Shown: in pieces, positions 38,377 to 56,062 of the stretch
Layout: every line of letters begins with the position of its first letter
Numbering within the stretch: the first letter of the stretch is position 1
Assembly: GCF_000027125.1 (NCBI RefSeq)
Contig: NC_017626.1
DNA: 64,000 nt
Strand: one strand, 5' to 3'
Source: Escherichia coli 042
GTDB lineage: Bacteria; Pseudomonadota; Gammaproteobacteria; Enterobacterales; Enterobacteriaceae
Position numbers and translations under genes: made by a program
Notes under the pieces: generated by a model
What the model was told of the DNA's origin: nothing
Databases searched by the model: none
What the model saw: the letters and a program-made list of their open reading frames with translations, nothing else

Positions 38377-38393
38377 ATTAAGCCAACCTTAAG
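38377..38393 (-). promoter_or_regulatory. PmrA (BasR) box of the eptA-basRS promoter
   Basis: Minus strand reads CTTAAGGTTGGCTTAAT (hexamer repeat, 5-bp spacer), about 45 bp upstream of the eptA ATG and embedded in a perfect 14-bp inverted repeat. Confidence 0.65.
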
Positions 38394-38433
38394 TTCTTAA
38401 GGTTGGCTTTTATGTTTGCTGGATTAAGGGGAA

Positions 38434-39771
38434 TTAATCTTTGCTTATTGGTGCATCTAAGGGATACGGGTTTTTATGCAGCCGGTTGTAATTCAGCGCA
38501 TACATGGCGGTGATGACCATCAGGGTGACAAATGACCACATAACCTCTTTCGCCCCGGACCCCACCACGGCCCAGATGCAGTAGAGGAAGGCAATGGTAG
38601 TAACTGCCAGATATACCGGGCGTGCTTTACCAAAGTGGCCGTGGCCGAGCAGCAGTAACGCCGCACAGGTGTAAAGATATGGCACCAGTGTAAAGATGAC
38701 CGAGACGGAAGAAACCAGACCGAACTCTTTGGTCGCGTTTGGTGAAATGCTGCTGAGCTGGAAGATGGTCATCAAAATACCGACGATAATCAGCCCCGCC
38801 ACTGGCGTACCCGCTTTATTAACACGGGCAAAAATCGGTGGGAACAGTCCGTCATCGGCAGCGGCTTTCGCCGTTTGACCCGCCAGCAACGTCCAGCCGC
38901 CCAGTGAACCTAAGCAACCCGCAGCTGCGCAGAAGGAAACAATGGCCCCGGCGGTGTCACCCAACGCCATCCGTGCGGCATCACCGAATGGCGAGGCAGA
39001 AACGCGCAGTGCGGCATTAGGGATCATCCCCATAATCGCGGTGGTGGAGAGTACATAGCAAACGGCGGCAATCAATACCCCACCAATGGTGGCGATAGGG
39101 ACGTTGCGTTTCGGGTTTTTCACCACACCTGCGGCAACGGAGGCACTTTCCACACCGATGAACGACCACAGCGTAACGTTAAGGGTACTTTGAATTGCAC
39201 CGAAGGTGCCCAGGCCGCTGACGTTCCATGCCGCCATATAGGTTTCACCACGGAACCAGAACCAGCCAAATACGGCAATCCCGACGATGGGGATCAGCGC
39301 CAGCACGGTGGCAACGGCCTGCACGCGGGTGATCATTTTCGGACCGACAATATTCAGCAGGACGAAGATCCACAGCACCACGACGCAGGTGATGGTTAAT
39401 ACCAATGGATCTTTCAGAATCGGGAAGAAGTAACTTAAATAACCTACGCCAATGACCACCATGGCGATATTGCCGATCCAGCAGGCCAGCCAGTAGAGGA
39501 CGTTGGTTTGATAACCGAGAAACGGCCCAAAGCAGCGACGGGCGTAAGCGTAAGAACCACCAGGACTTGGGTCGAGGAACGACATTTTGGCGTATACCAT
39601 CGAGAGCCCCAGCGCACCGATAATCGTCACCAACCATCCATAAATGGCAATCCCGCCAGTGGAGGCCAGGTTTGCAGGTAACAGAAAAACACCTGACCCC
39701 ATAATATTCCCCGACACCATCAGGGTGACGGGGATTAAGCCCACTTTGTGAGCATCAGCATCCGAAGACAT
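38434..39771 (-). CDS. adiC: AdiC, arginine:agmatine antiporter
   Basis: 445 aa APC-family transporter; context with adiY and adiA. Confidence 0.95.
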
Positions 39772-44379: not shown

Positions 44380-44531
44380 GGATGGCTCTCTTTCCTGGAA
44401 TATCAGAATTATGGCAGGAGTGAGGGAGGATGACTGCGAGTGGGAGCACGGTTTTCACCCTCTTCCCACAGCGGCGAGGGGAGCGTCCGAGCATCATGAG
44501 GCCGAAAACTCTGCTTTTCAGGTAACTTATT

Positions 44532-44581
44532 CCCATAAACTCAGATTTATTGATGCTTCACGTAGGATCTGAGTTTATGGG
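44532..44581 (+). promoter_or_regulatory. MelR operator sites of the melA promoter (inverted pair)
   Basis: cccataaactcagat (44532-44546) and its inverted copy atctgagtttatggg (44567-44581), 20 bp apart, about 80-130 bp upstream of the melA ATG. Confidence 0.7.
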
Positions 44582-44661
44582 AATGCTCAACCTGGAAGCC
44601 GGAGGTTTTCTGCAGATTCGCCTGCCATGATGAAGTTATTCAAGCAAGCCAGGAGATCTGC

Positions 44662-46017
44662 ATGATGTCTGCACCCAAAATTACATTTATCGGCGCTGGT
44701 TCGACGATTTTCGTTAAAAATATTCTTGGTGATGTGTTCCATCGCGAGGCGCTGAAAACGGCGCATATTGCCCTGATGGACATTGATCCCACCCGCCTGG
44801 AAGAGTCGCATATTGTGGTGCGCAAGCTGATGGATTCAGCAGGGGCCAGCGGCAAAATCACCTGCCACACCCAACAGAAAGAAGCCTTACAGGATGCCGA
44901 TTTTGTCGTGGTGGCATTTCAGATTGGCGGTTATGAACCTTGCACGGTGACTGATTTCGAGGTCTGTAAGCGGCATGGTCTGGAACAAACCATTGCCGAT
45001 ACGTTGGGGCCGGGCGGTATTATGCGCGCGCTACGTACCATTCCGCATCTGTGGCAAATTTGCGAGGACATGACGGAAGTCTGCCCCGATGCCACCATGC
45101 TCAACTACGTTAACCCAATGGCGATGAATACCTGGGCGATGTATGCCCGCTATCCGCATATCAAACAGGTAGGGCTGTGCCATTCGGTGCAGGGAACGGC
45201 GGAAGAGCTGGCGCGTGACCTCAATATCGACCCGGCTACGCTGCGTTACCGTTGCGCAGGTATCAACCATATGGCGTTTTACCTGGAACTGGAGCGCAAA
45301 ACCGCCGACGGCAGTTACGTGAATCTCTACCCGGAACTGCTGGCGGCTTATGAAGCAGGGCAGGCACCGAAGCCGAATATTCATGGCAATACTCGCTGCC
45401 AGAATATTGTGCGCTATGAAATGTTCAAAAAGCTGGGCTACTTCGTCACGGAATCGTCAGAACATTTTGCTGAGTACACACCGTGGTTTATTAAGCCAGG
45501 TCGTGAGGATTTGATTGAGCGTTATAAAGTACCGCTGGATGAGTACCCGAAACGCTGCGTCGAGCAGCTGGCGAACTGGCATAAAGAGCTGGAGGAGTAT
45601 AAAAACGCCTCCCGGATTGATATTAAACCGTCACGGGAATATGCCAGCACAATCATGAACGCTATCTGGACTGGCGAGCCGAGTGTGATTTACGGCAACG
45701 TCCGTAACGATGTTTTGATTGATAACCTGCCACAAGGATGTTGCGTGGAAGTAGCCTGTCTGGTTGATGCTAATGGCATTCAGCCGACCAAAGTCGGTAC
45801 GCTACCTTCGCATCTGGCCGCTCTGATGCAAACCAACATCAACGTACAGACGCTGCTGACCGAAGCCATTCTTACGGAAAATCGCGACCGTGTTTACCAC
45901 GCCGCGATGATGGACCCGCATACTGCCGCCGTGCTGGGCATTGACGAAATATATGCTCTTGTTGACGACCTGATTGCTGCCCACGGCGACTGGCTGCCAG
46001 GCTGGTTGCACCGCTAA
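44662..46017 (+). CDS. melA: MelA, alpha-galactosidase (GH4, NAD/Mn-dependent)
   Basis: 451 aa; N-terminal Rossmann motif (KITFIGAGSTIF); GGAG RBS. Confidence 0.95.
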   Translation: MMSAPKITFIGAGSTIFVKNILGDVFHREALKTAHIALMDIDPTRLEESHIVVRKLMDSAGASGKITCHTQQKEALQDADFVVVAFQIGGYEPCTVTDFEVCKRHGLEQTIADTLGPGGIMRALRTIPHLWQICEDMTEVCPDATMLNYVNPMAMNTWAMYARYPHIKQVGLCHSVQGTAEELARDLNIDPATLRYRCAGINHMAFYLELERKTADGSYVNLYPELLAAYEAGQAPKPNIHGNTRCQNIVRYEMFKKLGYFVTESSEHFAEYTPWFIKPGREDLIERYKVPLDEYPKRCVEQLANWHKELEEYKNASRIDIKPSREYASTIMNAIWTGEPSVIYGNVRNDVLIDNLPQGCCVEVACLVDANGIQPTKVGTLPSHLAALMQTNINVQTLLTEAILTENRDRVYHAAMMDPHTAAVLGIDEIYALVDDLIAAHGDWLPGWLHR

Positions 46018-46664
46018 GGGGTTATCGCTTCCGGCGCTCTGGTTATCAAGCCAAAGCGCCGTAGCTGGCGGCAATGCAAGCGAGCGAGGAATATCACCGT
46101 CGTTAATGCGCCAAGCAGCGCGCAGAACATATCGGATTGCGTGTCCCACTGGTCGCCCTGGGTGCCGAGAAAATCATCCGCTCCCTGACCCATTGCCAGC
46201 GCCGCCCACCACTCGATTAATTCATACATCGCGCTTATCGCCAGCGCCACGCAACAGACCAGAAACGCCACCATTTTACGTCCGCGAACGTACATCCCGC
46301 GCACAAGGATCTCACGTGCCACCAGTGCAGGCACCAGCCCCTGGAAAAAATGCCCCAGCTTGTCATACGGATTACGGCTCAACCCCAGCCATTCCTGCAC
46401 CTCAAAACCAACGGGGACTTTCGCGTAGGTGTATTGTCCGCCGACCATCAGGATGATGGCGTGAAAGAAAATGAGCGTATAGAGCAGCGGCGTTAACGGA
46501 TAACGTCTGGCGGTGGCAAGCAGTAGCGGCACGACAATAATCACCGGTGTCACTTCCATCAGCCAGGTGAGTTTGTCATGGGCCGAAATGCCGGTATAAA
46601 TCAGGATTAACGTTAGCGCCAGTGCGCCGGTGTTAAGAATTAACGGCTTGAGTGTGCGGGTCAT
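46014..46664 (-). CDS. yjdF: YjdF, inner membrane protein (C-terminus probably altered)
   Basis: 216 aa hydrophobic ORF; its stop (complement of 46014-46016) overlaps the melA stop codon by 2 nt. Confidence 0.8.
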   Translation of the reverse strand: MTRTLKPLILNTGALALTLILIYTGISAHDKLTWLMEVTPVIIVVPLLLATARRYPLTPLLYTLIFFHAIILMVGGQYTYAKVPVGFEVQEWLGLSRNPYDKLGHFFQGLVPALVAREILVRGMYVRGRKMVAFLVCCVALAISAMYELIEWWAALAMGQGADDFLGTQGDQWDTQSDMFCALLGALTTVIFLARLHCRQLRRFGLITRAPEAITP

Positions 46665-46786: not shown

Positions 46787-48433
46787 TTACTTAGTGCAGT
46801 TCGCGCACTGTTTGTTGACGATTTGCTGGAAGAAGTCGTTACCTTTGTCATCGACCAGGATAAACGCCGGGAAATCTTCTACTTCGATTTTCCAGATAGC
46901 TTCCATACCCAGCTCTGGATAAGCGACGCATTCCAGATGCTTGATGCTCTGCTGCGCCAGTACCGCCGCCGGACCGCCGATGCTACCGAGGTAGAAGCCG
47001 CCGTGTTTATGACACGCGTCGGTAACCTGCTGACTGCGGTTACCTTTCGCCAGCATGATCATGCTGCCGCCGTGGGATTGCAGCAGATCCACGTAGGAGT
47101 CCATACGACCTGCGGTAGTTGGGCCAAGTGAACCTGATGGATAACCGGCAGGGGTTTTCGCCGGACCCGCGTAGTAGATCGGGTGATCTTTGATGTACTG
47201 CGGAAGTTCTTTACCGGCGTCAATCAGCTCTTTCAGCTTGGCGTGTGCAATATCTCGACCCACAATAATGGTGCCGGTGAGCGACAAACGAGTGGAAACC
47301 GGATATTGCGAAAGCTGGGCGAGGATCTCTTTCATCGGGCGGTTAAGGTCGACCTTCACCGCTTCGCCTTCACCGGCCTGACGCAGTTCTTGTGGAATGT
47401 ACTGGCCTGGATTGTGTTCCAGTTTTTCGATCCAGATACCTTCGCGGTTGATTTTCGCTTTAATGTTACGGTCAGCGGAGCAGGAGACGCCCATGCCTAC
47501 CGGGCAGGATGCGCCGTGACGTGGCAGACGGATAACGCGAATGTCGTGCGCGAAGTATTTACCGCCAAACTGCGCGCCAAGACCGAGTTTCTGGGCCTCT
47601 TCCAGCAGTTCCTGTTCCAGCTGGACATCGCGGAACGCCTGACCATGTTCGTTCCCTTCCGTCGGCAGCTCATCATAATAGTGAGCGCTTGCTAACTTGA
47701 CGGTTTTCAGGTTGGTTTCCGCAGACGTACCGCCAATCACAAACGCGATATGGTACGGCGGGCAGGCTGCCGTACCGAGGGTACGCATTTTCTCAACGAG
47801 GAAGTTTTTCAGTTTGCCGGGAGTCAGCAGAGCTTTGGTTTCCTGGTAGAGATAGGTTTTGTTGGCAGAGCCGCCGCCTTTAGCGACACAGAGGAATTTG
47901 TACTCATCGCCATCTACCGCGTACAGGTCGATTTGCGCAGGCAGGTTAGTGCCGGTGTTGACCTCTTTGTACATGTCCAGCGCCGCATTCTGTGAATAGC
48001 GCAGGTTATCTTCGATATAGGTGTTATAGACGCCTTTCGACAGCGCTTCTTCATCACCGCCGCCGGTCCACACGCGCTGACCTTTTTTACCGACGATGAT
48101 CGCGGTGCCGGTGTCCTGGCAGGTCGGCAGCACGCCTTTGGCGGCGATTTCGGAGTTTCTTAAGAATTGCAGCGCCACGTACTTGTCGTTTTCGCTGGCT
48201 TCTGGATCTTGAAGAATAGCCGCGACCTGTTTCTGGTGTGCCGGGCGGAGCATGAAAGAAGCGTCGTGAAAGGCTTGCTGCGCCAGCAGAGTCAGGGCTT
48301 CTGGTTCCACTTTCAGGATGGTTTCACCGTCGAAGTCGGCAACGCTAACGTAATCGGAAGTGAGTAGATAGTATTCGGTATTGTCTTTCCCCATCGGGAA
48401 AGGTGCCTGGTAGATAAAGGGTTTGTTTGACAT
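46787..48433 (-). CDS. fumB: FumB, class I (Fe-S) anaerobic fumarate hydratase
   Basis: 548 aa; class I fumarase; immediately downstream of dcuB. Confidence 0.95.
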
Positions 48434-48510: not shown

Positions 48511-49851
48511 TTATAAGAACCCGTACATCGCGGCGAAGATCCAGCCGAAGACGCACGATACGCTCACACCAATCAACCCCGGCAGAATAAAGCTGTGGTT
48601 AATGACGAAGCGACCGATGTGGGTGGTGCCGGAACGGTCAAACTGAATCGCTGCCAGATCGCTCGGATAAGTCGGCAGGATGTAATAACCGTAGCAAGCC
48701 GGTGCTGAAGCCACGATGTATGCCGGATCAACGCCGATCGCCAGCGCGACCGGAACAATCGCCGCCAGCGCCGCAGCCTGAGAGTTTACAAACTTGGAAA
48801 CCAGCAGCAGAACAATGGCATAGGCCCACGGATACTCTTTCACCATTTCGCCCAGTACGCCCTGAATTTCAGACATATGTGCACCGAACATGGTTTCTGC
48901 CATCCATGCGATACCGTACACCGCCACGATGGCGATCATACCGGAACGGAAGACTTCGTTTTTTGAGATAGACGCGGGATTGGTTTTGGTCAGGATAATA
49001 ATCAGCGCCCCGGTCAGCAGCATAAACATCTGAATAACCAGTACCATCGACAGCGGTTTGCCACCGAAGGATGGACGCAGGTCCGAATCAGCACCAAGAA
49101 GGGCGACTACAGCGATTGCCCCGAGGAAAATCCACATTGCCAGCCAGTTGCTTTTCGGCAGTTTTTTATCCAGCAGCGTCGCGGTATCACCGTAAACATA
49201 CTCACGGTTTTCCGGTACGGAGATGAATTTCTGGAACTCTTCGTCTTTATCCAGATCTTTACCGCGGAACCAGCTGAAGATACCGATCGCCAGGATACCG
49301 ATTAACGTCGATGGAATGGTGATTGCCAGCAGGTCGAGGAACTCAAGATGGCGACCATCAAAGGTGACATTACCCAGCATCGCAACCAGAGACACGACTG
49401 CAACCGACACCGGACTGGCGATAATCCCCATCTGTGCACCAATAGAACTTGCCGCCATCGGACGTTCCGGACGGATATTGTTCTTAATAGCAACGTCGTA
49501 GATGATCGGCAGAATGGTGTAAACCACATGACCCGTACCGCAAAGAATGGTCAGCGTACAGGTCACAAACGGCGCGACAATTGAGACATATTTCGGGTTA
49601 CGGCGCAGCAGCTTCTCGGCAATTTGCAGCATGACATCAAGACCGCCCGAAGCTTGCAAGGTCGCCGATGCCGCCACCACCGCAATGATAACCAGCATGA
49701 CATCAACCGGTGGTTTACCTGGCTGAAGGTGGAAGACGAAGACCAGAATGACCAGACCGATACCGCCTAATAAACCCAGCGCGATACCACCCTTTCTGGC
49801 ACCATAAAACAGACATATCAGTATTATGATAAGTTGGATAGTAAATAACAT
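48511..49851 (-). CDS. dcuB: DcuB, anaerobic C4-dicarboxylate antiporter
   Basis: 446 aa polytopic membrane protein; context with dcuSR and fumB. Confidence 0.95.
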
Positions 49852-50421
49852 GTGTGAACCCTCGCGATAATCCTATTTAAATTTTTGCTGAATAGATCAC
49901 AGTCACGTTCTGTTTTGTATGAACTGTTTTCAGAGCCTGACTAAATATCCGTTTGGTCGTTACCGGCTTGAGCAAATACCTCACAGTGAATATTGGCTGA
50001 TTAAAGCAGCGGCAAATTTATGCACTGTGATAAGCGGCTTTTTCAGAGAGAAAGACTCTCTGGCGATGGGTTTATAGTTTGTACAACGCAGATGTTAATG
50101 TTTTGTTTGCTTCTATCTTATTGATATTTATCGGTCTGTTTTTTGTTCTCAGGGCAGATGTCATTAGGTTTATAGATTAATCTGATCTACCCATTTGTGG
50201 GTAAAAATACACATAATGCGGGTGACATAATAGTTAATTAACTTTTGTTAGCGTTTTGAAATTAAAAACACCGTTCATCTGAAGAGATATTAATTTTTAA
50301 CGATGATGGAGGGATAATTATATTTGATCTGGCACAAGTTTTACTGATGAAGAATGTAACTTGTGCCAGGAATATTTTGCATTACAGTAATAATTATTAC
50401 TTACAGATAACCAGCGATCCG

Positions 50422-51141
50422 TTATTGGCAATATTGTTTCAGCAGTGAGTAGTGTTCTGCCTGAATTCGGTAACGGTAAACCGGACGCCCCGTTACGCCA
50501 TAATGGATACTGGTGAACAAGATGTGGCAGTTGACCAGCCAGATGAGGTATTTACGGCAGGAAACACGTGAGATGTTAACCTCGTTGGCCAGCTCGTCGG
50601 TTGAAAACTCATAGTCCTGATGCGCGTCAATCCACTGGCACAGCGTGCGTAACGTCTGCGGCGTTAAGCCTTTTGGCAAGCGACGAGGATCCTGTTCGTT
50701 GGAGCTGCTGCCGTGGATTAGCTGATCAAGCTCGGCCTGGTCATAATACTGATGTTTTTCCAGCGCCATTTTCTTTTGCCGCCAGCCGGTGAGCGCCTCT
50801 TCAAAGCGGGAAGCCTGGAAGGGTTTGATCAGGTAATCCACGACACCGTAATGCAGCGAATCTTTAATGGTTGCCGCATCGGCTGCGGAGGAGATGACAA
50901 TCACATCACTTTTGCAACGCGCGTTATGCAGGACAGGCAGTAAATCGAGCCCGTTCTCTTTTTGCATATAGATATCGAGCAATATCAGGTCGATAGGCGT
51001 ATCGCTATCGAAGATAATCTCTTTGGCTTTCTCCAGCGTCGAGGCTGTTCCACAGCATTGAAAGCCCGGGATTTGTGCCACGTATCGGCGATTCAGCTCC
51101 GCGACCATTGCGTCGTCATCGATAATTAATACATTGATCAT
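50422..51141 (-). CDS. dcuR: DcuR, response regulator for C4-dicarboxylate metabolism
   Basis: 239 aa with receiver domain (MINVLIIDDD) and C-terminal HTH; overlaps dcuS stop. Confidence 0.95.
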   Translation of the reverse strand: MINVLIIDDDAMVAELNRRYVAQIPGFQCCGTASTLEKAKEIIFDSDTPIDLILLDIYMQKENGLDLLPVLHNARCKSDVIVISSAADAATIKDSLHYGVVDYLIKPFQASRFEEALTGWRQKKMALEKHQYYDQAELDQLIHGSSSNEQDPRRLPKGLTPQTLRTLCQWIDAHQDYEFSTDELANEVNISRVSCRKYLIWLVNCHILFTSIHYGVTGRPVYRYRIQAEHYSLLKQYCQ

Positions 51142-52769
51142 CTGTTCGACCTCTCCCCGTCCCAGGGTATCTGGACAAAAAATTGTGTGAAAATCCCGGG
51201 TTCCGATTCCACGGCGATGCTGCCGCCGAGATTTTCTACCTGTTGTTTGACAAGTGCTAAACCGACGCCTCGCTCGCTTCCTTTTGTCGAGACACCTTTG
51301 TCAAAAATGTGATCGATTTTGTCGGGTGCGATCCCCGGTCCATCATCGTTAACTTCACAGTGCAGCCAGCCGTGACGGTAGTGCAATGTTACGCTAATTT
51401 CGCCACCGGGTTCCGGCCCTAATGCTTCCAGCGCGTTTTCTATCAGATTTCCCAACGTGGTAATCAGCGTCGCGACCTGGTCTTCACTGCCGCTGTCTGG
51501 CAGCTGGCTTTCACTGTTTAAAATCAGCGTATGGCCTAAATCGGTCGCGCGGTTAATCTTGCTGATTAAAAAACCAGCGATAACCGGAGATTTGATCTTA
51601 CCCAGCAGAGAGCCAATCTCTTCCTGATAGTTATTGGCTGTTTTGAGAATGTAATCTTCCAACTGCTTATAACTCTTCAGATGCAATAATCCGAGAATCA
51701 CATGCAATTTATTCATAAATTCGTGGGACCGTTCACGAAGTGCGTCAGCATAGTTGACCAGACCGTCGAGTCGTTGCATCAGTTTACGTACTTCAGTTTT
51801 GTCCCTGAAGGTTGAAATGGCACCGATGATAACGCCATTACTGCGCACCGGAACGGTGTTGATCAGTAATAGCCGGTCTTTAATCGTAATCTCTTCGTCG
51901 CGGCGCGGGGTACCGTCGCGTAACACTTCCGAGACATCTACCACCTGTGACCACGAGTGGCTTAGCGTCGACAGTTTCTCATCGTCCTGCGACTTACGGT
52001 AATTCAGCAATTCTTGTGCGGCATCGTTGATCAGCGTGACCTCGCCGCGATCGTCCACGGCAACGACGCCTTCTTTGATAGACTGCAACATGGCCTGGCG
52101 TTGCTCAAACAGCGTGGAGATTTCGTAGGGTTCCAGGCCGAAAAGGATTTTTTTCAGTACTTTAACCAGAATGCAGGTGCCAATCAGTCCGACCAGCATG
52201 CCAAATAATACTGACCAGATAATGCTCCAGCGACTGTCATTGATCTGTTGGGTCACGCGGCTTAACTCAAGGCCGATCGCCACCACGCCAATTTGTTTAT
52301 GATTTTCATCGTAGATGGGGGTAAATACGCGTAAAGCCTGCGCCAGAAAACCGCGATTGATAGCGACATTTTCTTCGCCATTCAGCGCTTTAAGGATGTC
52401 ATCACCTTTAAATGGCTGACCAATACGCTGGGCTTCAGGATGCGAGTAGCGAAGACTTTGCATATCGGTAACGACAATAAACAGCAGATCGTTGCGTTTG
52501 CGTACGGCTTCCGCGATGGCCTGGATGCCGCTCTCCTGCGGTTTTTTCTGCAAGCCCTGACGGATTTCCGGCGAGTCGGCGAGAGTACGCGCCACTGCCA
52601 GTGCCTTGTTGGCTAGCCCGTCTCGCGTCATATCACTGATTTGCGAGAAGTAAATCAGATGCACCACCAATAGCACCGAGAACAGTACCGCGCTGACCAT
52701 TAAGATCACAGTGGTACTCAATTTCATCGGACGTTTGCGTAACATGCGGTAGGGCAATGAATGTCTCAT
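51138..52769 (-). CDS. dcuS: DcuS, C4-dicarboxylate sensor histidine kinase
   Basis: 543 aa with two TM segments, periplasmic sensor and PAS domains, and kinase core. Confidence 0.95.
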   Translation of the reverse strand: MRHSLPYRMLRKRPMKLSTTVILMVSAVLFSVLLVVHLIYFSQISDMTRDGLANKALAVARTLADSPEIRQGLQKKPQESGIQAIAEAVRKRNDLLFIVVTDMQSLRYSHPEAQRIGQPFKGDDILKALNGEENVAINRGFLAQALRVFTPIYDENHKQIGVVAIGLELSRVTQQINDSRWSIIWSVLFGMLVGLIGTCILVKVLKKILFGLEPYEISTLFEQRQAMLQSIKEGVVAVDDRGEVTLINDAAQELLNYRKSQDDEKLSTLSHSWSQVVDVSEVLRDGTPRRDEEITIKDRLLLINTVPVRSNGVIIGAISTFRDKTEVRKLMQRLDGLVNYADALRERSHEFMNKLHVILGLLHLKSYKQLEDYILKTANNYQEEIGSLLGKIKSPVIAGFLISKINRATDLGHTLILNSESQLPDSGSEDQVATLITTLGNLIENALEALGPEPGGEISVTLHYRHGWLHCEVNDDGPGIAPDKIDHIFDKGVSTKGSERGVGLALVKQQVENLGGSIAVESEPGIFTQFFVQIPWDGERSNR

Positions 52770-54190: not shown

Positions 54191-54308
54191 GAGCTGTAGT
54201 TGAGTGGACCCGCTGGTTATCTTGAAACGAAGCGTCTCTCCTCATAACTGGATTTGCGGAACGACGAACGAAGCAGTCGCCTGACTGCTTCGTTCATTTA
54301 AGTGAAAT

Positions 54309-55826
54309 TTATTTCTGTGGGCGCATCGCCGGGAAGAGAATAACGTCGCGAATAGTATGGCTGTTAGTAAACAGCATAATCATTCGGTCGATACCAATAC
54401 CCAGACCAGCGGTTGGCGGCAGACCATATTCCAGCGCAGTCACGTAATCTTCGTCATAGAACATGGCTTCGTCGTCACCTGCAGCTTTAGCGTTAACCTG
54501 TTCCTGGAAACGTTCAGCCTGATCTTCTGCGTCGTTTAATTCGCTAAAACCATTACCGATTTCACGACCACCGATGAAGAATTCAAATCGGTCGGTGATT
54601 TCCGGGTTAACATCATTACGGCGCGCCAGCGGAGACACTTCTGCCGGATATTCCGTAATAAAGGTTGGCTGAATCAGATGTGCTTCTGCCACTTCATCAA
54701 AGATCTCCGTAACAATACGTCCCAGACCCCAGCTTTTCTCTACCGTAATTCCGATAGATTCAGCTAATGCTTTAGCAGCATCAAAATTATCCAGGTCGGC
54801 CATATCGGTTTCTGGACGATATTTTTTGATTGCTTCGCGCATGGTGAGTTTTTCAAACGGTTTGCCGAAATCAAACACATGCTCGCCATAAGTGACTTTA
54901 GTGGTACCAAGAACCTCTTGTGCCAGGGTGCGGAACAGGGACTCCGTCAGTTCAATCAAATCGTGGTAATCCGCATACGCCATGTAGAGTTCCATCATTG
55001 TGAACTCAGGATTATGGCGAACAGAAATACCTTCATTACGGAAGTTACGGTTGATTTCGAATACCCGTTCAAAACCGCCTACAACCAGACGTTTCAGATA
55101 CAGCTCTGGCGCGATACGCAGGTACATATCTAAATCCAGAGCGTTATGATGGGTAATAAACGGGCGAGCAGATGCCCCACCTGGAATTACCTGCATCATC
55201 GGGGTTTCTACTTCCATAAAGCCGCGCGCGACCATGAACTGACGGATAGCGGCCAGAATTTTTGAACGGACAACAAACGTTTGACGGGATTTATCGTTAG
55301 CGATGAGGTCCAGATAACGTTGACGATAACGGACTTCCTGATCCTGCAGACCATGGAATTTATCTGGTAAAGGACGTAGTGCTTTAGTCAGCAGGCGCAG
55401 CTCAGTACAGTGAATGGAAAGCTCACCCGTTTGCGTCTTAAACAGCGTACCGCGGGCACCGATAATGTCACCCAGATCCCATTTTTTAAACTGATCGTTA
55501 TAAACACCTTCTGGCAGGCTATCTCTTGCAACGTACAGTTGAATACGGCCACCGACATCCTGCAACGTTACAAAGGAGGCTTTCCCCATGATACGACGGG
55601 TCATCATTCGGCCAGCAACCGAGACTTCAATGTTTAAGGATTCCAGTTCCTGGTTATCCTTCGCATCAAACTCTTCGTGCAACTGGTCAGAGGTATGGTC
55701 GCGGCGAAAATCATTGGGAAACGCCACACCTTGCTGACGTAGTGCCGCCAGTTTTTCGCGGCGATTTCTCAGTTCATCGTTAAAATCAATAGCCTCATTG
55801 GCTCCCCGTGTTTCTCGTTCAGACAT
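54309..55826 (-). CDS. lysU: LysU, inducible lysyl-tRNA synthetase
   Basis: Start chosen at [11 protein letters not shown] (505 aa); class II aaRS motifs; adjacent to dtpC and cadA, which distinguishes it from lysS. Confidence 0.9.
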
Positions 55827-56062
55827 TTTGGTTCCTCTAAATCCAGCTTTCAATTTAGCGTAGATAAAGAGACAGATCGGTACACTGTATTATCTGCCTC
55901 GACTATTAATAACTCAGTTTATCTTATCGAAACTAACGCTTACCTCAAGTTGATATCACTAATAAATAACCATAAAAATGGTTTAAATGACTTATTAATC
56001 TCGATTTGCTAGTGTGATAAACTGAAAGTTAATTTATTCATAACCAATTGTTTTTACGACAG

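Follow-up and report, generated by a model that had tools for sequence, protein, structure and literature searches.

The dcuB promoter depends on FNR and DcuR, and its FNR site has already been published. In the ChIP-seq study by Myers et al. 2013 (PMC3688515), dcuB-fumB is listed as directly FNR-activated (Category 1) with a peak centre at 4,347,259 and a site at −132.5 (Table 1 of that study), the site, scored with an FNR weight matrix, is given for dcuB as a 14-mer at 4347240 (U00096.2) with a ChIP peak (Table S6), and the peak is present in all of their FNR datasets (Table S5). A second described system concerns the ends of messages rather than their promoters: the steady-state 3' ends of Rho-dependent E. 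coli transcripts were found to be stable stem-loops without a U tract, which protect against PNPase and RNase II and are accompanied by a mild enrichment of C over G downstream (Dar and Sorek 2018).

Here, we analyzed a 64,000-nt stretch of DNA from E. coli 042 (NC_017626.1), referred to as the window, in which an inverted repeat with a long spacer lies between dcuR and dcuB (Table 1). One half of this repeat is the published dcuB FNR site, and the other half, a lineage-specific addition, probably shapes the 3' end of the dcuSR message. In our estimate, chances are about even that the known FNR operator also supplies the 3' arm of a stem-loop without U tract at the 3' end of the dcuSR mRNA, of the type protecting Rho-dependent transcripts.

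Table 1. Features of the dcuSR-dcuB-fumB region (window coordinates).
Feature	Sequence	Position	Strand	Remarks
fumB		46787-48433	−	ORF list and annotated E. coli homologues
dcuB		48511-49851	−	homology to annotated E. coli records
dcuB −10 and transcription start block	TATGTGTATTTTTACCCA	50198-50215	−	invariant in Escherichia, conserved across genera
Conserved block 4	GTGTGTATTTTTA			−10 region
Conserved block 3, AT-rich invariant, 47 nt	GTTTTTAATTTCAAAACGCTAACAAAAGTTAATTAACTATTATGTCA	50223-50269	none	about −25 to −71; conserved across genera
C-rich, G-poor stretch 3' of the hairpin (dcuR sense)		50282-50328	−	possible Rho-utilisation region, by analogy with Dar and Sorek 2018
FNR binding site	TTGATCTGGCACAA	50324-50337	none	−132.5 from dcuB start; Myers et al. 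2013 (PMC3688515)
Conserved block 2	AAnTTGTGCCAGATCAAATAT			FNR box and flank; contains the left arm
Left arm	CTGGCACAAGTT	50329-50340	none	3' arm of the hairpin on the dcuR-sense (−) strand
Spacer/loop, 17 nt		50341-50357		stem-proximal bases conserved in Escherichia, centre variable
Right arm	AACTTGTGCCAG	50358-50369	none	5' arm of the hairpin, dcuR sense
Predicted stem-loop		50329-50369	−	12-bp stem; 53 nt past the dcuR stop; no U tract
Conserved block 1, AT-rich	GTTATnTnnnnGTAACAATTATTAnAATAATGAAAAAT	50376-50415 (as block ~50376-50415)	none	just past the dcuR stop; four genera; loci L013-L033, ~2218-2300
dcuR		50422-51141	−	homology to annotated E. coli records; the hairpin would fall in its 3' UTR
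dcuS		51138-52769	−	ORF list and annotated E. coli homologues

The inverted repeat and its genomic context

The two arms were re-found exactly as the preliminary description had given them, i.e., with perfect complementarity over 12 bp and 17 nt in between. We compared the window with its first-order Markov shuffles, counting perfect inverted repeats with arms of 12 bp or more and 3-30 nt between them. The shuffles gave an expectation of 0.12 per 64 kb, with any such repeat present in 9.5% of them, and on this ground the repeat is not a chance feature; the window holds four loci of this kind. A dispersed repeat (REP or MITE-like) could be ruled out, as 5,414 of 5,426 complete E. coli genomes have the 55-nt segment with the repeat at a single place. 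Within the window, no other close copies of the 12-mer were found beyond chance. Across ~5,400 complete E. coli genomes, the dcuR-dcuB intergenic region shares 97-99% identity with that of the window.

Inverted repeats were also seen elsewhere in the window. The melR-melA intergenic region contains a perfect 17-bp repeat with a 20-bp spacer (44530-44583; TTCCCATAAACTCAGAT / ATCTGAGTTTATGGGAA), the arms of which we take to be the paired MelR binding sites of the melAB promoter. Two perfect 12-13-bp inverted repeats with 4-6-nt loops (38380-38409 and 54266-54295) sit just 3' of the − strand ORFs 38434-39771 and 54309-55853 and look like ordinary terminator hairpins. Between 46017 and 46790, no full-length melB follows the melA-like ORF (44662-46017); the melA-fumB interval comprises a 160-aa ORF (45974-46456) and, before fumB, a 216-aa − strand ORF (46014-46664). 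Relative to the MG1655 gene order, melB appears to be deleted or truncated.

Homology to annotated records upheld the described placement of the repeat just 3' of dcuR and 5' of dcuB. With the FNR box at −132.5, the dcuB start lies near 50198, in agreement with an anaerobic sigma70 ChIP peak (4.34712e6, U00096.2) that maps to ~50204, and the dcuB leader extends over ~347 nt from this inferred start. The repeat corresponds to −131 to −171 and thus precedes the promoter instead of lying in the dcuB leader, to which it had been attributed. Any RNA hairpin would therefore be possible only in read-through dcuSR transcripts, i.e., in the dcuR 3' UTR.

The promoter is marked independently by changes selected in the gut. 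During mouse-gut colonisation by E. coli, IS2 insertions and an A-to-T change were recurrently selected, and the insertions at −338 and −359 from the dcuB ATG raise anaerobic dcuB expression (Lourenco et al. 2016). These mutations map to 50189-50210 of the window (MG1655 U00096.2 4347105-4347126), at the inferred −10/start block, which the two insertions bracket; lying at the promoter/start, −338 to −359 from the ATG, they do not mark the repeat. An ArcA site derived from ChIP data for dcuB (ATGTTAATGTTTTGTTTGCTGTTATCTTATTGA in MG1655; Park et al. 2013) falls within the dcuB leader at 50092-50124 (about +74 to +106), where the window differs from MG1655 by two bases (..GCTTCTATC..). ArcA was consequently discarded as a candidate for the repeat, since its published site coincides neither with the repeat nor with the conserved block upstream of it. 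In E. coli strain S7 (NZ_CP107128.1, ~307410-307709), the intergenic region matches in one piece only over the 300 bp next to dcuR, equal to window ~50122-50421; the match is found at two places in the record, with the phage gene gpFI annotated beneath. This points to a junction with a prophage or a rearrangement near 50122, within the dcuB leader.

The FNR site and the conservation of the two arms

The published dcuB FNR 14-mer occurs once in the window and coincides with 50324-50337, so the proposed comparison with mapped FNR sites returned a direct overlap with the left arm: 9 of the 12 bp (50329-50337) are shared, and the box reaches 5 bp further left. The ChIP-seq peak centre at 4,347,259 maps to ~50343, within the repeat. 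In MG1655 NC_000913.3, the 14-mer starts at 4349217, i.e., 4347240 + 1977. We take 1977 to be the number of nucleotides by which the two MG1655 versions differ in length, as the match of the sequences confirms here. Based on the published data and the coordinate mapping, the FNR box is occupied in vivo under anaerobiosis and the adjacent operon is FNR-dependent. With respect to the consensus TTGAT-N4-ATCAA, the box (TTGAT-CTGG-CACAA) fits 8 of 10 positions, and the right arm with its flank (TTGTG-CCAG-GAATA) only about 4 of 10. Of the two arms, only the left one thus takes part in the FNR site, and the operator is not formed by the whole repeat. The preliminary description had considered a dimeric protein-binding site, which holds true in that an FNR site overlaps the repeat; however, this site is the 14-bp box TTGAT-N4-CACAA and not the 12-N17-12 arrangement.

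To place the arms in a wider context, a DcuR scan with one genome per species yielded 80 loci, and dcuB follows dcuR in 27 of these. The comparison set comprised the 26 loci with an FNR box, belonging to four genera; Intestinirhabdus has no box and was left out. Four blocks are conserved in Escherichia, Citrobacter, Salmonella, and Trabulsiella (Table 1), and the pattern TTGnGnnAGATCAA at the FNR box is kept across genera. The FNR box is old and is conserved across Enterobacteriaceae keeping the dcuSR-dcuB arrangement. DcuR is reportedly bound at a site 27 bp upstream of a new dcuB +1, and on this basis, the DcuR footprint probably falls in the 47-nt AT-rich block. The right arm is limited to Escherichia species, plus 10 of 12 bp in C. 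koseri; among the 26 loci, it is absent from the C. freundii group, C. amalonaticus, Salmonella diarizonae, and Trabulsiella. Conservation across the family, proposed earlier as a check on the repeat, was therefore confirmed for the left arm in its role as FNR box in four genera, but not for the right arm beyond Escherichia and the partial match in C. koseri.

Within Escherichia, we aligned 8 lineages (E. coli, E. albertii, E. whittamii, and unnamed species) with intergenic identities to the window of 85-98%. Invariant positions made up 72% of the columns, yet only 12.9% of 12-nt windows were wholly invariant. The right arm together with four loop bases (ACAT) forms a 16-nt invariant run (50369-50354) in all 8 lineages and ranks fourth in the region; the longer runs are the DcuR block (47 nt), the FNR box plus its flank (26 nt), and the −10/start block (18 nt). 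Nearly all lineages differ in the three bases bordering the right arm on its outer side and in the loop centre. Likewise, seven sampled E. coli variants of the 55-mer carry changes in the loop centre or the outer flanks and never in the arms. Among complete E. coli records, the MG1655-type 55-mer is present exactly in 3,361, the O157 type in 295, and the window type in 238.

Two independent IS1 insertions were observed inside the 17-nt spacer (window 50341-50357), one in E. coli 14EC007 (L007, 2530-3300) and one in EP91B (L088, 2536-3305), with the differing target duplications CGATGAACA and AAGGATGT. In both strains, the right arm stays with dcuR on one side of the insertion, and the FNR box with dcuB on the other.

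A predicted RNA hairpin in the dcuSR 3' UTR

In the sense of dcuR, the repeat starts 53 nt past the stop codon. The predicted stem includes 6 G-C pairs among its 12 bp and can be lengthened by UAC/GUA (3 bp, 14 pairs in total) if a 2-nt bulge is allowed, the loop then being 11 nt long. For the dcuR-sense 41-mer, the minimum free energy amounts to −17.1 kcal/mol, and in context the fold is more stable than shuffles (z = −3.2). It is retained in all Escherichia (−18.6 to −22.9 kcal/mol, 74-nt context), and per-locus folds of the other genera in the same context gave nothing comparable at that place. Across the alignment, 98.3% of cells pair, vs. 10-43% in slid controls.

The natural variants bear on the strand in which the fold matters. 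Three one-sided arm changes were identified, namely in O157 (right/5' arm) and in E. albertii/14EC007 and C. koseri (left/3' arm or flank), and all three produce a G-U pair on the dcuR-sense RNA and an A-C mismatch on the + strand. The corresponding energies are −15.1 kcal/mol in dcuR sense vs. −12.1 kcal/mol on the other strand for the O157 variant, and −18.0 vs. −11.9 kcal/mol for the E. albertii variant. The change from the widespread AAT to AAC in E. coli replaces a G-U pair by G-C. Since other genera commonly have T at this position, the C of E. coli is apparently the derived state. Double-sided compensatory changes were not found in any of the 12 pairs, and covariation is nil. None would be expected if one arm is locked by FNR binding. 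In most strains, the + strand folds equally well, and the four invariant loop bases beside the right arm are not accounted for by pairing with the FNR box. A curated structured-RNA family was considered and rejected: an Rfam scan with E up to 10 returned only spurious eukaryotic or plastid matches, none at the repeat, and covariation does not support the helix. Of the structured RNA element initially suspected in the dcuB leader, a plausible hairpin stands, but in the dcuSR transcript. At least in 14EC007 and EP91B, this hairpin is dispensable, given the IS1 element inside its loop.

Genera without the repeat were predicted, by per-sequence folds, to form a different stable hairpin a few nt upstream, which encloses the conserved AT-rich block. 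In these per-sequence folds, the closing clamp differs by clade yet stays complementary: GGGAUU/AAUCCC in ten C. freundii-group genomes, where a U-rich run with a terminator-like look follows, CCUGGG/ACCAGG (−22 to −24 kcal/mol), AACCUU/AAGGUU, and AGCGUU/AACGCU in S. diarizonae. Escherichia lacks the clamp. RNAalifold did not recover the clamp helix on the non-Escherichia loci, which we attribute to misalignment of the clamp columns by MAFFT. The clade-specific complementary clamps indicate that a hairpin after dcuR seems to be maintained while its sequence turns over, and this other-genera hairpin is the strongest indirect argument for the Escherichia repeat acting as a dcuSR RNA hairpin. 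As to the AT-rich block itself, it includes a 16-bp palindrome (AGTAATAATTATTACT, 50385-50400); outside Escherichia it is predicted to form the core of the clamp-closed hairpin, with a GC clamp covarying between clades, and in the C. freundii group the block hairpin with its U-rich run resembles a long intrinsic terminator. The block may act as the core of an RNA hairpin, as a protein site, or as both.

These features can be combined into the following model. Along the Escherichia lineage, the stretch 17 nt ahead of the FNR box (dcuR sense) would have turned into its exact inverted copy, and transcripts leaving dcuR would fold into a stem-loop of approximately −17 kcal/mol, 53 nt past the stop. 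Because the ATCAAATAT half of the FNR site occupies the 3' flank of the stem and holds it fixed, there is no U tract, and for lack of a U tract the hairpin is unlikely to terminate transcription alone. Instead, Rho or a roadblock might halt RNA polymerase downstream in the C-rich, G-poor stretch, and bound FNR possibly aids the Rho-dependent ending of dcuSR transcription as such a roadblock. The C/G ratio there is about 3 (60-nt windows, 50361-50282, − strand), a mild value obtained for one AU-rich locus with no background distribution. Subsequently, 3'-to-5' exonucleases would trim the transcript back to the hairpin, which may set and stabilise the dcuSR mRNA 3' end and limit read-through into the dcuB control region. 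By analogy with the described Rho-dependent transcripts, we infer that an ending by Rho combined with protection by the hairpin could generate the mature dcuSR 3' end. In the Term-seq and SMRT-Cappable-seq supplements searched, no entry for a dcuR RNA 3' end was found.

A more far-reaching version, which we regard as improbable, would have the dcuB FNR operator double-coded, the DNA binding FNR and the RNA serving as 3' arm, with the FNR roadblock and the nascent hairpin together ending dcuSR transcription shortly before the dcuB promoter. If this were true, insulation between the sensor operon and its target gene would be oxygen-dependent, and the hairpin of the other genera would represent the ancestral, FNR-independent solution.

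Alternative explanations and comparison with known systems

Both arms could instead be DNA half-sites for a protein, or for two protomers, other than or besides FNR, comparable to the MelR sites in the melR-melA region. The arms and the four loop bases are sequence-invariant in Escherichia without covariation, the repeat lies within a dense control region bound by FNR, and long-spacer inverted repeats do occur in control regions, 44530-44583 being an example. Several observations make this reading rather unlikely, however. Citrobacter, Salmonella, and Trabulsiella keep the FNR box, the DcuR block, and the −10 region but lack the right arm; with its flank this arm matches only ~4 of 10 FNR positions and offers no CRP-like partner half-site; the arm centres are 29 bp apart, ~2.8 helical turns, and hence not on one face; and the motif has no other copies in the window, the 55-nt segment being present once per E. 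coli genome. In addition, the natural arm variants are exactly those which RNA pairing tolerates on one strand. We also weighed a right arm without any function. Quasi-palindrome correction occurs as a mutational process, and a templated strand switch in the Escherichia ancestor may have perfected a quasi-palindrome that was then kept by chance or by repeated correction. Weak resemblances at the same place in related genera (e.g., AAGGTTAAGGTTAC and AAGCGTAAGGTTAC), the few substitutions by which Escherichia and C. koseri differ, all raising complementarity, the lack of covariation, the toleration of IS1 elements splitting the repeat, and the lack of a recorded transcript end would all fit. 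It is nevertheless difficult to reconcile with a 16-nt invariant run where just 12.9% of 12-nt windows are invariant and where the direct flanks have diverged in nearly every lineage, or with sampled E. coli variants that change outside the arms in 7 of 7 cases. Moreover, the other genera keep a different hairpin with covarying clamps, which argues that the hairpin here is selected. We therefore consider a functionless arm unlikely.

An intrinsic terminator, either of dcuSR on the − strand or of an antisense transcript on the + strand (stem then GAATATTTTG), is highly improbable. The stem is stable, a short U run follows it by 3-5 nt on the + strand and is kept in Escherichia within a conserved GCAAAA block, and the counterpart hairpin upstream in the C. 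freundii group carries a U-rich tail. On the other hand, a terminator scan was negative at the repeat for both strands, the loop of 17 nt (11 nt with the bulge) exceeds the usual 3-8 nt, and the − strand continues with the 3' flank AUCAAAUAUAAU and the tail AUCAAAUAUAAUUAUCCC, without a U tract. On the + strand, the variants give A-C mismatches, and neither a gene nor a conserved promoter leads into the repeat; the single promoter-like match (50297-50324) is at chance level in a stretch varying between Escherichia species. The preliminary description had already judged the repeat not to be a canonical intrinsic terminator, and the loop length, the missing U tract, and the negative scan bear this out. 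The model of an FNR operator doubling as the 3' arm of a dcuSR 3'-end stem-loop thus remains the explanation to which we give the most weight.

Further candidates were tried and dismissed. A sigma54 promoter is contradicted by the −12 element, which reads ACAT (−) or TTAC (+) and not TTGC, although TGGCAC is contained in each arm. For CRP, the TGTGC motif lacks a TCACA-like partner at 6-bp spacing in either arm. As for NarL, the heptamer TACCCCT, which borders the right arm on its outer side in MG1655, lacks conservation even among Escherichia, and another one in the loop, TACTGAT, matches at 6 of 7 positions and was given little weight. The + strand promoter-like match was set aside, being at chance level in a variable stretch, and translation of six frames over the repeat yielded no short ORF that we would take as a gene.

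For annotation, the value of this analysis is that the repeat is best annotated neither as a new palindromic operator nor as an RNA element of the dcuB leader. What is new is that a transcription-factor box has been extended into a predicted, lineage-specific hairpin of a 3' UTR, a modest, unsurprising, and mostly explained feature. If the proposed role of the hairpin is true, one sequence would be constrained both as DNA, as a site of the downstream gene, and as RNA, as a stem-loop of the upstream operon, and the locus would illustrate how 3'-UTR hairpins turn over between genera of enterobacteria. In neither respect would the understanding of the DcuSR-FNR-dcuB circuit change.

Compared to known systems, the relation to the dcuB-fumB FNR operator is the closest: 50324-50337 is the published site letter for letter, under a ChIP-seq peak. 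Set against the consensus of the CRP/FNR family, its ATCAA half is perfect and conserved across genera, whereas the CACAA/TTGTG half is degenerate. Only the left arm belongs to this operator, and the 12-N17-12 arrangement does not correspond to it. The position is atypical as well, since −132.5 is far from the usual activating positions (about −41.5 or −61.5) of typical class II (−41.5) or class I sites. Intrinsic terminators resemble the repeat in their place after the last gene of an operon and in the 12-bp stem with 6 G-C pairs, but the repeat differs by its 17-nt loop, the lack of a U tract, and the failed consensus scan. With paired inverted transcription-factor sites, as for MelR at melAB, it shares perfect arms ~20 bp apart upstream of a promoter; its second arm, however, is not conserved where the regulators are, and its variants fit RNA pairing. 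To our knowledge, there is no candidate protein for the repeat as a paired inverted site. The Rho-dependent 3' stem-loops (Dar and Sorek 2018) are alike in forming a stable stem-loop soon after the stop codon without a U tract; their mild excess of C over G just downstream may have a counterpart in the C/G ratio seen here at one locus with no background distribution. The predicted dcuSR hairpin differs from them in its 17-nt loop, which is longer than typical, and in its 3' arm, which is simultaneously the transcription-factor site of the next gene.
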